Part shown: positions 30,944 through 35,286 of the stretch, in pieces
Position numbering within the stretch: position 1 is the first letter of the stretch
Layout: every line of letters starts with the position of its first letter
NCBI GenBank assembly: GCA_964553695.1
Contig: CAZKLR010000001.1
Location: 1-36,395 of the forward strand
Source: an uncultured Candidatus Saccharibacteria bacterium
GTDB lineage: Bacteria > Patescibacteriota > Minisyncoccia > JAHIHE01 > JAGLIN01
Reading direction: 5' to 3'
Length of the DNA stretch: 36,395 nt
Translations under genes and position numbers: made by a program
Notes under the pieces: generated by a model
Seen by the model: only the letters and a program-made list of their open reading frames with translations
The model's database searches: none
Told to the model about the DNA's origin: nothing

Positions 30944-32689
30944 ATGGAACCTAAAAAAATAAAAGTACAGCAAGTAAGAAAAAGAGACGGCAGAATTGTA
31001 AAATTTGATAAGAAAAAGATTACCGGTGTTTTAATGAAAGCTTTTAAAGCTACAGACGAAGGCGGTCTTAGAAATGCGCAGGATTTAACGAGGAAGATAG
31101 AGCACGAAATAGACAAAAGGTTCACAGTGAGAAATGGCGGCGGCAAAATGAAAGCGGAAATTCCTACGGTTGAGGAAATTCAGGATATTGTGGAAGGGAT
31201 TTTGATAAGAGAAAATTATGTTGATACTGCCAAGGCTTTTATTATTTATAGGGAACAGCACAGAAGGCTGCGCGAGAATCAGGAGGTTCTTAAAAATGCC
31301 GTTGATTTGGTTGATGCCTATTTGAGCGAGATGGACTGGAAAGTCAAAGAGAACAGCAATATGTCTTATTCTCTGCAAGGGCTTAATAATTACATCGGGG
31401 AGATTGTTACTTCCAAATATTGGATAGAAAAAATTTATCCGCCGGAGGTGCGTGATGCTTACGTTGATGGCGATTTTCATATTCATGATCTGGGGCTGCT
31501 TTCTGTTTATTGTTGCGGATGGGATTTGAAGGATCTCTTGACGCGTGGATTTGGCGGGGTTAAAGGGAAAATTGAAAGCGGGCCGGCTAAACATTTTCGT
31601 TCGGCTTTGGGCCAGCTGGTAAATTTTCTTTATACTTTGCAGGGAGAAGCGGCAGGAGCGCAGGCTATTTCCAATTTCGACACATTGCTTGCTCCTTTTA
31701 TCAGATATGATCAGCTTACTTATCGTGAAGTTAAGCAGGCAATGCAGGAGTTTTTATTTAATATGAATGTTCCAACTCGTGTAGGATTCCAGACGCCTTT
31801 CACAAATATTACGATGGATTTGACTGTGCCTTCCACTTTGGCGAATGAGGCGGTGATAATAGGCGGGCAGCCTCAAAAAGAACAGTATAAAGATTTTGCG
31901 AGCGAAGTCATTCTTTTAAATAAAGCTTTTGCGGAGGTGATGTCGGCAGGGGATTCAAGCGGCAGAGTTTTTACTTTCCCTATTCCAACCTATAATATTA
32001 CCAAAGATTTTAATTGGGACGATCCGGAGCTGGAACCGCTTTGGGAAATGACTGCCAAATATGGAATCCCTTATTTTTCCAACTATATAAACAGCGATAT
32101 GAATCCGGAAGACGCTCGTTCAATGTGCTGTCGTTTGCGTCTCGACAATCGCGAGCTCTACAAACGCGGCGGCGGGCTTTTTGGAGCAAATCCTATGACG
32201 GGTTCTATTGGAGTTGTAACGATCAATTTGCCAAGAATTGGATATACTTCAAAAAATAAGAAAGAATTCTTTAAGCGTTTGGAAGAATTGATGGGTTTGG
32301 CAAAAGTGAGTTTGGAAATCAAAAGAAAGACTTTGGAAAATTTTACCGCCAATGGACTTTATCCGTATTCCAGGCATTATCTTGAAAATATAAAATTGCA
32401 GAGAGGTGAGTACTGGGGCAATCACTTTTCAACTATCGGAATTATAGGAATGAATGAGGCGCTTTTGAATTTCTTCGGTCCCAAGACCAATATTGCTACT
32501 CCGAAAGGTATGGCTTTTGCAGAAGAAATTCTGAATTTTATGCGTGATAAGATGGTTGAATATCAGGAAGAAACCGGAAATTTGTATAATTTGGAAGCGA
32601 CTCCCGGAGAAGGCACCTCTTACCGTTTGGCTCGCAAGGACAAGGCCAAATATCCGGATATTCTTACGGCAAATGATAATATAATATAA
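30944..32689 (+). CDS. nrdD: anaerobic ribonucleoside-triphosphate reductase, C-terminally truncated (possible pseudogene)
   Basis: 581 aa. N-terminal ATP-cone (VRKRDGRIVKFDKKKI), then a class III RNR core (NMSYSLQGLNNY, HIHDL, CCGWDL, GAQAISNFDT, FTFPIPTYN, YFSNY.NSDM..EDARSMCCRLRLD, LEATPGEGTSYRLARKDKAKYPDI). The ORF stops at ..LTANDNII* with no Zn-ribbon and no RVxGY glycyl-radical motif. About 130-150 aa appear to be missing. Confidence 0.85.
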   Translation: MEPKKIKVQQVRKRDGRIVKFDKKKITGVLMKAFKATDEGGLRNAQDLTRKIEHEIDKRFTVRNGGGKMKAEIPTVEEIQDIVEGILIRENYVDTAKAFIIYREQHRRLRENQEVLKNAVDLVDAYLSEMDWKVKENSNMSYSLQGLNNYIGEIVTSKYWIEKIYPPEVRDAYVDGDFHIHDLGLLSVYCCGWDLKDLLTRGFGGVKGKIESGPAKHFRSALGQLVNFLYTLQGEAAGAQAISNFDTLLAPFIRYDQLTYREVKQAMQEFLFNMNVPTRVGFQTPFTNITMDLTVPSTLANEAVIIGGQPQKEQYKDFASEVILLNKAFAEVMSAGDSSGRVFTFPIPTYNITKDFNWDDPELEPLWEMTAKYGIPYFSNYINSDMNPEDARSMCCRLRLDNRELYKRGGGLFGANPMTGSIGVVTINLPRIGYTSKNKKEFFKRLEELMGLAKVSLEIKRKTLENFTANGLYPYSRHYLENIKLQRGEYWGNHFSTIGIIGMNEALLNFFGPKTNIATPKGMAFAEEILNFMRDKMVEYQEETGNLYNLEATPGEGTSYRLARKDKAKYPDILTANDNII

Positions 32690-32701
32690 ACTTTCAAATA
32701 T

Positions 32702-32727
32702 AAAACAGCCTGTTAAAGGCTGTTTTT
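32702..32727 (+). terminator. rho-independent terminator immediately after the nrdD breakpoint
   Basis: AACAGCC (32704-32710) / GGCTGTT (32718-32724), loop TGTTAAA, then TTT. Confidence 0.6.
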
Positions 32728-32815
32728 ATGAAAAAAACTTATGGCTTTATTCTTTACTTTTTGCGCTATAAGCCTTATTATTAAGTTAAGATTATTTTTT
32801 AAAATATAAATTTCT

Positions 32816-33838
32816 ATGCAAAGAACGGAAATTATAAAGCAAATAGAAGAATTGAGAAATTCAAAAGTTGTGAGTTATATAACGAGTGATAGACAAGGTC
32901 CTATAAATGCGCGCGTGGCGATGGATATTATTCCGATTATCAGCTCCCAGCTTCGCAAAATAGGAAAAACGAGTAAGATTGATTTAGTTTTGTACAGCTC
33001 CGGAGGTGACACAATGGTCCCGTGGCGGCTGGTTTCGATGATCCGGGAATATTGTGATCAGTTTTCAGTAATTGTTCTTTATAAAGCTCATAGCGCGGCA
33101 ACGATGATTTCCCTGGGGGCGGATGAAATTGTTATGAGTGATATGTCGGAACTTTCACCAATCGATCCTTCAACGTCTAATTTTTTCAATCCGTCTGATC
33201 CGCAAAATCCCCAGAGCAGGATTCCGATTTCCGTTGAAGAAGTAATGGCTTATTTTGATCTGGCAAAAAATAAATTTGGGATTAAAAGCGATGAAGAGCT
33301 CACAAAGATTTTCAATAAGTTCATCGAAAGCAATCCTTCCATACATCCGCTGGCGTTGGGCAATGTGAACAGAACGCATAATCTTATTAAAATCCTTGCC
33401 AAACGCCTTTTAAAAAGCCACAGAGAGTCTCTCAAGGAGGAAGAAATTGATAGAATCATTGAATTTTTAACGGAAAAACTATACTCGCATCAGTATTATA
33501 TCGGCAGAAAGGAAGCCAAAGAAGATCTGGGGATAAAAACTGTGACTTATGCCGATGAGAAATTGTCAGAGTTGATGACCAGTCTTTATGAAAGCTATGC
33601 CGAGGAAGCGCAGATAAACAAAATCTGGAATCCGGAAATTGAGATTGAAGGAAAGGAAACGCAGAATAAAGAATATAAAATCGCTTTTGTGGAAAGCGGG
33701 GAAATGCAGAATTATTTCTCTTTGGGGATCGAATTGAAGAAAGTAAGAAAACCTGTGCCTCTTCAGACTCCGCAAGGTCCGATTAATATTGAACAGGACC
33801 AAATTGTGTGGAGAATGACAGGGCAGGGGTGGAGATAG
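32816..33838 (+). CDS. Clp-fold serine protease, SDH (serine dehydrogenase proteinase)/S49 SppA-like family
   Basis: 340 aa. VVSYITSDRQG...IDLVLYSSGGDTMVPWRLVSMIREYCDQFSVIVLYKAHSAATMISLGADEIVMSDMSELSPIDPS matches the ClpP/crotonase-fold SDH family pattern, with the nucleophile Ser in HSAAT. The C-terminal about 200 aa are helical with no motif I recognise. Confidence 0.65.
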   Translation: MQRTEIIKQIEELRNSKVVSYITSDRQGPINARVAMDIIPIISSQLRKIGKTSKIDLVLYSSGGDTMVPWRLVSMIREYCDQFSVIVLYKAHSAATMISLGADEIVMSDMSELSPIDPSTSNFFNPSDPQNPQSRIPISVEEVMAYFDLAKNKFGIKSDEELTKIFNKFIESNPSIHPLALGNVNRTHNLIKILAKRLLKSHRESLKEEEIDRIIEFLTEKLYSHQYYIGRKEAKEDLGIKTVTYADEKLSELMTSLYESYAEEAQINKIWNPEIEIEGKETQNKEYKIAFVESGEMQNYFSLGIELKKVRKPVPLQTPQGPINIEQDQIVWRMTGQGWR

Positions 33839-33847
33839 TAAACGAAA

Positions 33848-34489
33848 ATGAAAAGAAAAGGTGTCAATATATGTCTAGTAGCTCCAATCATAACCTTTTT
33901 TTTGGGTCTCAATTTGTCTATTTTTTTAAAGCTGATAGATGATATTTTAAAGCGGATAAATCTTAATGTTGTAGCAATTGTTATAACAATTTGCCTTGCG
34001 TTTGGTGTGCCTCTCTATAAAGAAAATAAAAAAAAGAGATCTACTGCTAGACAAGTGTTACAGGAGATAAAAAATGCGATGAGCCAAATAGAGATTATCC
34101 ACGAAAGGGGTGATAGCTTTTCTTTATCTGACAGGCTACTTCCTACAGATAATTGGCATAATAATCTCTCTTTGTTCACAAATGATCTGAATGAAAATGA
34201 AAGAAAATCTGTAAGCTGCTTCTACAAAGAGGCTGTTTGTATTGATAATATGATATTTCGTGCAGTAAATCAGCTCTTTAATGCTCCTGTCTTATCTTCG
34301 TATTCTTCGGATGATAGTTGTGATAATTCTAATAAAGGCATACAATATTCTTCTATTACTTCTGGGTTTGAGCTTAATATAAGGACCTTATTGCTGGAGG
34401 AAATTAATGTTATTAAGTCGATAGATATGATTTCTGCGGTAGATAAATTAGAAGAGATTTCTGTTAAAAAATGGCTTAGATTTTTATAA
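33848..34489 (+). CDS. hypothetical 2-TM membrane protein (213 aa)
   Basis: Starts 9 nt after the protease gene. Two N-terminal TM helices (VNICLVAPIITFFLGLNLSIFLKLI; VVAIVITICLAFGVPLY), then a soluble domain of about 150 aa with no recognisable motif. More AT-rich than its neighbours by eye. Confidence 0.5.
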   Translation: MKRKGVNICLVAPIITFFLGLNLSIFLKLIDDILKRINLNVVAIVITICLAFGVPLYKENKKKRSTARQVLQEIKNAMSQIEIIHERGDSFSLSDRLLPTDNWHNNLSLFTNDLNENERKSVSCFYKEAVCIDNMIFRAVNQLFNAPVLSSYSSDDSCDNSNKGIQYSSITSGFELNIRTLLLEEINVIKSIDMISAVDKLEEISVKKWLRFL

Positions 34490-34566
34490 GGCAAACTTTT
34501 CTGTCAAAATTTTCTTCGACTCAACTTAGGTGGAAATAATAAAGATCGAAAATAATTTTAAAAAAC

Positions 34567-35286
34567 ATGCTAATCGGCGGACTGCAAAAATTTACAGCCT
34601 TGGATTATCCCGACAAGATTGCGGCGACGATTTTTACGGTGGGGTGTAATTTTCGCTGTCCTTTTTGCCATAATGGCGAGATTGTGGAGATTGGTTCAGA
34701 GAATAATTTTGAGATTATCAGTGAAGCGGAGGTTTTGAAGTTTTTAAAATCTCGGCAAGGCGAACTGGATGGGGTTTGCATTACGGGCGGAGAGCCGACA
34801 TTGCAGAAAGACCTTCTTGAATTTATAAAAAAAGTGAGGAAGATGGGATTTTTGGTGAAGGTGGATACTAATGGTTCAAATTTTGAAGTGGTGAAAAATT
34901 TGGTGGCAGAAAATATTGTTGATTATTTTGCAATTGATATAAAGACCACTTTTCAGAAATATGATTTGGTTTCGGCGCCAAAAGACAGTGCGGAAAATAC
35001 TTTACGGAGCGTAGAATTTATACTAAAGAATAGCATTCCTTTAGAATTACGGACCACTATGGCTCCTGGAGTAGTTGCACTGGATGATTTTGATGAAATT
35101 ATCCGTGTTTTGGGAGAGGAAAATGATATATTATCCCGACTATTTCGATACAGTGTGCAGGCGTTTCGTCCGCAAAAATGTCTGGACGATCAATTTGAGA
35201 AACTTGTGCCTTATGATGATTTTATCCTGGAAGAAGCGGCGAATAAGATACGGAAATATTGTTCGCGAGTAGATGTGGTTAAATGA
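34567..35286 (+). CDS. nrdG: anaerobic ribonucleoside-triphosphate reductase activating protein (radical SAM)
   Basis: 239 aa. GGLQKFTALDYPDKIAATIFTVGCNFRCPFCHN (CxxxCxxC radical-SAM cluster) and GVCITGGEPTL. It appears full length. Confidence 0.85.
   Translation: MLIGGLQKFTALDYPDKIAATIFTVGCNFRCPFCHNGEIVEIGSENNFEIISEAEVLKFLKSRQGELDGVCITGGEPTLQKDLLEFIKKVRKMGFLVKVDTNGSNFEVVKNLVAENIVDYFAIDIKTTFQKYDLVSAPKDSAENTLRSVEFILKNSIPLELRTTMAPGVVALDDFDEIIRVLGEENDILSRLFRYSVQAFRPQKCLDDQFEKLVPYDDFILEEAANKIRKYCSRVDVVK

Follow-up and report, generated by a model that had tools for sequence, protein, structure and literature searches.

A Clp-fold serine protease and its two-transmembrane-helix partner as a candidate mobile defence module in Patescibacteria

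The stretch of DNA considered here is a 36,395-nucleotide contig (CAZKLR010000001.1 of assembly GCA_964553695.1; henceforth the window) from an uncultured Candidatus Saccharibacteria bacterium, in which two adjacent genes lie between those for the class III ribonucleotide reductase NrdD and its activase NrdG. The first codes for a soluble serine protease of the SDH type with a ClpP-like fold, and the second for a small membrane protein, here called T2, with two predicted transmembrane (TM) helices. We propose that the pair belongs to an accessory module that moves among the Patescibacteria and acts in defence or exclusion at the membrane, making it a candidate anti-phage system; we put the probability of this reading at roughly 45%. 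We see the cassette in the window as a minimal two-gene copy of that module and not as a housekeeping part of the nrdD-nrdG operon. Its accessory status is argued by the lack of the cassette in 13 related species, by the variable content of the same spacer among the four closest genomes and by the swap of the partner gene at one of them, L010 (L numbers denote the loci compared). In the Patescibacteria, also known as the candidate phyla radiation, genomes are tiny and, apart from restriction-modification (R-M), defence systems have seldom been recognised. If the proposal holds, it would supply them with a new component of immunity, a widespread and highly conserved protease module that heads their R-M islands, and would give the SDH/Clp-fold protease family its first immune role.

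The site of the cassette was compared across 80 nrdD loci from species-representative genomes, 16 of which share the NrdD type of the window (76-91% identity). In 13 of these 16 species, nrdD and nrdG are separated by an empty gap of only 14-195 nt without the cassette, and hence the cassette is an insertion into a variable nrdD-nrdG spacer. This bears out the first-pass annotation, which was made from the letters and their open reading frames (ORFs) and had seen in the pair the look of a mobile accessory module interrupting an otherwise conserved nrdD-nrdG operon; nor is the pair a conserved core neighbour of nrdG, as would have spoken against that description. The same four-gene order recurs on an independent public contig (L001). 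Elsewhere among the closest genomes the spacer holds 498 nt with no ORF (L015:7755-8254), or 3.8 kb with two large secreted or surface-like proteins of 560 and 397 aa (L016:7743-11586), and neither of these two spacers retains remnants of the protease or of T2. In L010 and L011 it holds the protease (89% amino acid identity), after which genes for a DUF6941 protein and for a protein with one TM segment stand where the window has T2. This junction, with its different cargo in the nearest genomes, is a local hotspot of gene gain and loss in the lineage. The marks of an integrative element, namely flanking direct repeats and/or an integrase or transposase, are missing from the window: a search around 32690-34566 gave no flanking repeat longer than expected by chance, and no integrase is encoded. 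The tRNA and Rfam scans of the window were likewise empty.

The nucleotide-level comparison with L010 (blastn) bears on the history of the insertion. Homology runs through nrdD to position 32661, is found again from 32750 (66 nt ahead of the protease gene), continues at 79% identity and ends exactly at the protease stop codon; similarity to the relatives resumes at 34559-34567, that is, 8 nt before nrdG in the case of L010. In the comparison with L010, synonymous substitutions have reached saturation in the protease and the flanking housekeeping genes alike; the protease has therefore occupied this position over roughly the whole time since the two genomes parted, and its downstream partner was replaced later. 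GC content is 0.316 in the T2 gene (0.276 at third codon positions), against about 0.40 in the protease and all neighbouring genes, which fits a separate and later acquisition of T2 behind an older protease gene.

The two ORFs had been placed exactly as they stand in the ORF list, with 9 nt between the protease stop and the T2 start and a GGAGA motif 13 nt upstream of the T2 ATG. The upstream terminator that had been postulated is also borne out: a hairpin beginning 13 nt past the nrdD stop codon, between nrdD and the cassette, folds with -15.6 kcal/mol (z = -5.5), and none of 200 shuffled sequences was equally stable, even if the hairpin is not conserved in L010, L015 or L016. Downstream, T2 and nrdG are 78 nt apart, and a scan of this gap (34490-34566) revealed no terminator-like site. 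The cassette appears to carry its own promoter, which now probably also drives nrdG. The other genes flanking it in the window code for HisRS, HIT, YbeY, FtsA, FtsZ and DUF167 proteins besides NrdD and NrdG; these genes and the names borne by homologues assign the window to Candidatus Moranbacteria/Patescibacteria.

The protease passes the gathering threshold of the Pfam SDH_protease family (PF01972; 58.3 versus 31.3 bits, E = 8e-16, residues 1-127) and falls short of the cut-off of the corresponding NCBIfam equivalog NF047768 (66.7 versus 250 bits). It has 2070 database homologues at E <= 1e-3, the best 120 of which are 68-100% identical, and is covered over residues 2-265 by PHROG 11747, a family of unknown function, at 3e-40. 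A sequence search of the Protein Data Bank (PDB) with the protease gave no match. An AlphaFold2 (AF2) model (mean predicted local distance difference test score, pLDDT, 78; predicted template-modelling score, pTM, 0.76) matched PDB structures of ClpP and SppA in Foldseek with E-values of 8e-4 to 1e-3 and TM-scores of 0.56-0.63 normalised by target length, and giant-virus models annotated as "serine dehydrogenase proteinase" with E = 3e-10 and TMq 0.51. These results uphold the earlier assignment of a ClpP/crotonase-fold protease. The C-terminal 200 or so residues, which had been described as an unclassifiable helical region, turn out to be mostly the second half of the SDH/ClpP fold, because both the PHROG profile and the Foldseek alignments to ClpP, SppA and the giant-virus proteins (about 250-290 columns) extend across them; only residues 282-339 are extra, and these form a domain with three long beta strands. 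Residues 119-182 are modelled as a low-confidence insertion.

Assigned by position and motif, the candidate catalytic triad comprises Ser93 (in KAHSAAT), Asp117 (SPIDPS) and His225 (YSHQY), with a GGD motif at residues 63-65 in the oxyanion region, and retains the Ser...Asp...His order after which the SDH family is named. The triad residues and G63-G64-D65 are invariant in 56 close homologues and in seven sequences down to 25% identity. The serine of HSAAT, whose loss would have counted against a protease, is thus intact, and this conservation predicts a catalytically competent enzyme. No TM segment or N-terminal signal is present; the maximum of the 19-residue Kyte-Doolittle profile (1.22) corresponds to the buried strand bearing the nucleophile. 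Against L010, the ratio of nonsynonymous to synonymous substitutions (dN/dS) is about 0.03, and the dN of 0.074 lies below those of FtsZ, FtsA and NrdD. We know of no established physiological role for the SDH/PF01972 family.

T2 has two hydrophobic helices at about residues 5-29 and 40-57, followed by a soluble domain without a match in Pfam, NCBIfam (above noise) or PADLOC and without a recognisable PDB fold, in line with what the first-pass annotation had seen. Charges of +3 at the N-terminus, 0 in the loop and +5 after the second helix, read with the positive-inside rule, predict a TM hairpin with both ends inside the cell, which would place the helical domain of some 155 aa in the cytoplasm. 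The AF2 model is all helical (pLDDT 80), and a fold search with it against the PDB gave generic helical bundles only (E >= 0.5). A word-indexed single-sequence search had found T2 alone, as though it were an ORFan; this was overturned by local blastp, which recovered two-TM proteins downstream of the protease at other loci with 31-35% identity (E 1e-15 to 1e-27), and by profile searches. A profile of seven proteins retrieved 202 clusters at 90% identity and one of 79 sequences retrieved 568 clusters at 50% identity, delineating a family that Pfam lacks. Among the 150 top-scoring clusters listed there are no fusions; their members stand alone and are about 70-260 aa long (most of them 180-250). 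Conservation peaks in the helix leaving the second TM segment (AAxxxLQEI..A...I) and around a TNSW motif. T2 was not found in the phage and plasmid collections. A 205-aa two-TM protein at L098, considered as a divergent T2, found no support as such (hhalign probability 0.9%).

The association of the two genes extends well beyond this genome, and many unrelated loci carry both. From the protease we collected 20 distinct contexts, in seven of which T2 follows directly or after one small gene; from T2 we collected five, in four of which a Clp-fold protease lies immediately upstream. The SDH protease is the upstream gene at L113, L114 and L122, at the last of which the pair stands by itself amid Sec and further housekeeping genes, while L116 has T2 without a protease. 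With L113, L114 and L122 included, ten loci join T2 to the SDH protease, and the flanking genes differ at each. At the remaining T2 locus (L123:6444-7642), a homologue 29% identical to the T2 of the window follows, translationally coupled through a 4-nt gene overlap, a 186-aa Clp protease of the PF00574 family that has no pairwise similarity to the SDH protease. T2 thus pairs with two different families of Clp-fold proteases, once with PF00574. Among the comparative findings, none speaks more strongly for a functional link than this association with two protease families that share a fold and are otherwise unrelated. Taken as a whole, T2 represents a family missing from Pfam, with at least 568 clusters, and its sole consistent neighbour is a Clp-fold protease.

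The pairing is also reflected in the sequences of the two proteins. Distances between the proteases correlate in part with those between the T2 proteins (Mantel r = 0.39, p = 0.025), and there are clear exchanges, for example at L099. The protease tree has three main branches, and each of them includes proteases linked to T2. Other co-directional partners of the protease include a protein we call S (94-100 aa with a C-terminal TM helix), the DUF6941 protein with a single-TM coiled-coil protein, and DUF3467, KilA-N and PemK proteins. The protease is more strongly conserved than FtsZ, while its partner genes are swapped.

The contextual evidence for defence comes from these other loci. A recurring island has the order RadC, protease, (S), T2, (DUF6941 and TM protein), N6_N4 methylase (Mod) and ResIII helicase-nuclease (Res), with type III-like Mod and Res genes directly downstream in five independent contexts (L006, L013, L098, L113 and L114). 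R-M or other defence genes flank the module at L003, L006, L009, L013, L097, L098, L101, L104, L113 and L114 (Table 1). Relatives of the R-M and RadC proteins of these islands were found in 11 of the 21 protease/T2 loci (302 kb) versus none of the 80 control nrdD loci (882 kb), a rough contrast in view of the small sample and of query proteins drawn from the test loci themselves. The expectation that the genes would lie near known defence genes in other genomes is thus borne out. As a further observation, RadC (a JAB-like protein, UPF0758) lies near the protease or T2 at L013, L098, L104, L113, L114 and L116; it repeatedly precedes the protease-T2-Mod-Res series, and at L116 it is found near the lone T2, beside an SLFN-like helicase and MazG. 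This recurrence hints at a larger conserved island architecture.

Homologues of the protease are also a feature of proviruses. A scan of IMG/VR with the single protein gave no match, but an alignment-based scan found 89 stretches encoding relatives; among the 80 of these that were listed, about 46 have E < 1e-30, and many are full length with 33-43% identity. In Escherichia coli, 47 of 5426 complete genomes carry a 331-aa homologue (39% identity; prophage proteins WP_044064371.1 and WP_086714419.1) annotated as an "SDH family Clp fold serine proteinase". Its gene is a lone, opposite-strand one between the antiterminator Q and holin genes of lambdoid prophages and of a phage-plasmid, a location that is a classic slot for morons. 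Porphyromonas phages carry a 25%-identical homologue inside their structural gene block. A separate observation in many of the viral and proviral loci is an S/T/N-rich ORF of 55-65 aa that overlaps the protease stop codon by 8-29 nt, is 45-80% identical between loci and is absent from the RefSeq annotation. This small ORF may be a translationally coupled partner of the protease, such as a substrate, an inhibitor or an antitoxin. The lambdoid moron-slot homologues also make the proposal directly testable in a tractable host.

Taking these findings together, we envisage a mechanism in which the cytoplasmic domain of T2 would face the compartment of the soluble protease and T2 might tether or gate the protease or be cut by it. 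Some trigger arising from infection could then release proteolysis of T2 itself or of a phage or host target, and the outcome would be defence against phage or foreign DNA, or exclusion, at the membrane. The TM helices of T2 are poorly conserved and its soluble domain well conserved, a pattern that would better suit an anchor or regulator than a pore-forming effector and that is one of several observations weighing against the proposal in its simplest form. Only seven of the 20 contexts collected from the protease hold T2, the protease otherwise being alone or beside unrelated neighbours, and T2 may thus be dispensable cargo. Genes engaged in an arms race seldom show purifying selection as strong as that acting on the protease. 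The cassette in the window has no R-M or other defence gene nearby, and the pair at L122 is just as bare. Co-location in islands would fit addiction or anti-restriction roles equally well. The models of PADLOC-DB v2.0.0 match none of the protease, T2, S, the DUF6941 protein, RadC and the E. coli and Chlorohelix homologues, in agreement with the earlier statement that the pair could not be matched to a named defence system; the lone match was a weak one of the coiled-coil, single-TM neighbour to LmuB. Our literature searches on PF01972, the SDH protease, ClpP-like or S49 proteases in defence and DUF6941 likewise brought up nothing relevant. One study of Patescibacteria-specific defence genes is concerned with LdgA and DdgA (PMC12366544).

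A more elaborate form of the proposal, which we regard as less likely than not, is that these genes make up a new Clp-fold-protease immune module with interchangeable partners (T2, S, or DUF6941 plus the single-TM protein), native to the Patescibacteria and to proviruses of other phyla and serving as a second-line or guard layer to R-M systems, especially those of type III. The cytoplasmic domain of T2 would hold the protease latent at the membrane until a cue from infection, for example a phage protein or the failure of restriction, frees it for abortive proteolysis, and the E. coli copy with its 59-aa ORF would act in superinfection exclusion.

Of the alternatives to a defence role, the one that best withstands the evidence, though we think it improbable, is quality control of membrane proteins or peptides, or resistance to antimicrobial peptides, in the manner of SppA-SppI or NfeD-stomatin and with no part in phage biology. 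Foldseek indeed groups the protease with SppA and ClpP, its gene is tightly coupled to that of a membrane protein conserved in its soluble domain, and its strong purifying selection would suit such a task, as would the housekeeping surroundings of the pair in the window and at L122 and a Band_7/stomatin gene 2 kb downstream at L123. However, the protease has neither the TM segment nor the signal peptide of SppA and NfeD, T2 has no similarity to RDD or Band_7 proteins, and the patchy distribution, swapped partners and recurrence in R-M islands and proviruses sit badly with a housekeeping function.

Somewhat less probable again is stabilisation of the islands by addiction, akin to a toxin-antitoxin (TA) system, in which the protease would continuously neutralise or process a latent toxin, either T2 or another of the small membrane proteins, so that loss of the island kills or arrests the cell. 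The operon order, with a conserved enzyme followed by small and variable membrane proteins, is as this idea would have it; the genes share islands with R-M, Phd/ParE, PemK and RadC; and the conserved ORF of 55-65 aa overlapping the protease stop codon in the viral and proviral loci resembles a cognate small partner. Yet no TA family is known in which neutralisation falls to a dedicated Clp-fold protease, the TM segments of T2 are not conserved as toxin helices usually are, and the protease persists where T2 has been replaced (L010). That the protease is a leftover or domesticated ClpP-related head-maturation protease of a phage, with an unrelated neighbour and no cellular function, is highly implausible. 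In its favour are weak partial matches to head-maturation models (NF045542 at 2e-8, PHROG 1684 at 2e-10 and PHROG 94 at 4e-5), the homologues in proviruses and the Porphyromonas homologue inside a structural block. Against it, those matches score far below family cut-offs (34.2 versus 120 bits for NF045542), genes for portal, capsid or terminase proteins are missing from the surroundings in the window and at every Patescibacteria locus, dN/dS is about 0.03, the triad is invariant, and the E. coli gene occupies the moron position outside the head module.

Table 1. Positions of the cassette and its borders in the window, and selected features of the loci compared
Feature	Locus	Coordinates	Strand	Basis or remark
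SDH-type ClpP-fold serine protease, 340 aa, soluble	window	32816..33838	+	ORF list and PF01972 match
T2, 213-aa two-TM membrane partner	window	33848..34489	+	ORF list and TM scan
Intrinsic-terminator-like hairpin (10-bp perfect stem, 5-nt loop, then UUUUUAU)	window	32702..32726	+	inverted repeat I21 and RNA folding
Protease-gene leader, conserved with L010	window	32750..32815	+	blastn homology
Sigma-70-like match TTTACT-17-TATTAT in protease leader	window	32753-32781		consensus match only, 9/12 positions
nrdD, 581 aa (ATP-cone and NRDD barrel)	window	30944..32689	+	Pfam; left border of insertion site
nrdG, radical-SAM activase, 239 aa	window	34567..35286	+	Pfam Radical_SAM and Fer4_12; right border of insertion site
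Protease-T2 pairs found from the protease	window, L003, L006, L013, L099, L103, L104
Small ORF overlapping the protease stop	L118	3217-3396		E. coli phage-plasmid NZ_CP081704.1
Small ORF overlapping the protease stop	L135-L138, L156, L159-L161, L164, L165
HNH_2, HpaII, Vsr; Fic with SLFN/AlbA ATPase	L003
EcoRII-C and C5 methylase (Dcm)	L101
DpnI	L104
Two methylases	L009
GmrSD	L113
Phd/ParE	L114
PemK	L096
Bro-N or KilA-N proteins	L097, L099, L102
rve transposase abutting the protease	L013			at this locus only
Relatives with short NrdD	L015-L027, L029, L030, L032

The NrdD at the left border of the insertion site is itself unusual in lacking the C-terminal 130 or so residues, which comprise the PYYTNS strand, the Zn ribbon and the glycyl-radical loop. 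Of the 562 positions of the Pfam NRDD profile, its match takes in 1-434; the part of the Thermotoga maritima structure that can be aligned ends at about residue 525 of 651, and that of the T4 structure at about 471 of 605; and no PYYTNS, Zn-ribbon or RVxGY motif is encoded anywhere in the 36-kb window. The obvious suspicion that the cassette truncated nrdD is ruled out: the NrdD of 16 related species (Table 1), most of them without the cassette, ends at the same place, after "...YPDIxTA", at about 578-585 aa. On this point the first-pass annotation needs correction, as the short form is a trait of the clade and not an effect of the cassette; its overall reading is partly supported, in that the module is accessory, mobile and paired and is associated with defence islands, its role in defence being a candidate one. 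The short NrdD is under strong purifying selection (dN/dS of about 0.02), and the nrdG activase is retained. In two more distant metagenome-assembled genomes (L031:5977-8351 and L069:5959-8419), NrdD is split at the same point into a protein of 608 or 612 aa and a C-terminal piece of 150-156 aa, the latter with its own start codon and the PYYTNS, CxxC...CxxC and RVVGY motifs. This piece is absent from the nrdD loci of the window's clade (within 6 kb on either side) and from the 36-kb window. One explanation suggested by this arrangement is that the class III ribonucleotide reductase comes as "genes-in-pieces", its radical domain being encoded elsewhere; were the C-terminal piece truly absent with nrdG kept, it would pose a real puzzle. 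Our literature search on short or split NrdD found no paper describing it.

Among known systems, the PF01972/NF047768 SDH family, which is related to MEROPS S49, shares with the protease the profile match, the fold and the Ser-Asp-His order, but the protein in the window adds the insertion at 119-182 and the C-terminal beta domain at 282-339 and scores below the NF047768 cut-off. Phage head-maturation proteases (NF045542; PHROG 1684, 94, 2976 and 53) have the fold in common and a weak similarity at residues 42-113 around the nucleophile, whereas the protease lies below their family thresholds and has no linkage to capsid, portal or scaffold genes. Nearest by design are SppA-SppI (YteJ) of Bacillus subtilis and NfeD (STOPP)-stomatin, in which a ClpP-fold serine protease stands beside a membrane regulator or substrate, as the Clp-fold protease of the window is paired with a membrane partner encoded in its operon. 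SppA and NfeD are, however, membrane-anchored housekeeping enzymes with a Ser-Lys dyad, while the protease of the window is soluble with Ser-Asp-His, its module is patchy and island-borne, and T2 is not an RDD or Band_7 protein; given those anchored proteases, and partners to which T2 bears no relation, we place the pair in neither system.

Parallels from immunity are offered by CBASS, retron and Pycsar systems, which include two-TM effectors, and by PrrC-EcoprrI, in which a "guard" module is attached to an R-M system. A protease/membrane-effector pair from defence islands is represented by the bacterial gasdermins with their adjacent proteases (bioRxiv 10.1101/2021.06.07.447441). Gasdermin and CBASS-type pairs resemble the module in linking a protease to a small membrane protein, in their location in defence islands and in their interchangeable effectors; they differ in that the protease here is of the Clp fold and not caspase-, trypsin- or CHAT-like, and in that T2 is predicted to be an integral TM hairpin with the soluble domain as its conserved part. 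The likeness to PrrC-EcoprrI is one of analogy only: there is no relation in sequence or fold and the copy in the window has no R-M neighbour, but in both cases accessory genes lie within or abut an R-M operon, here the type III Mod-Res in five contexts.

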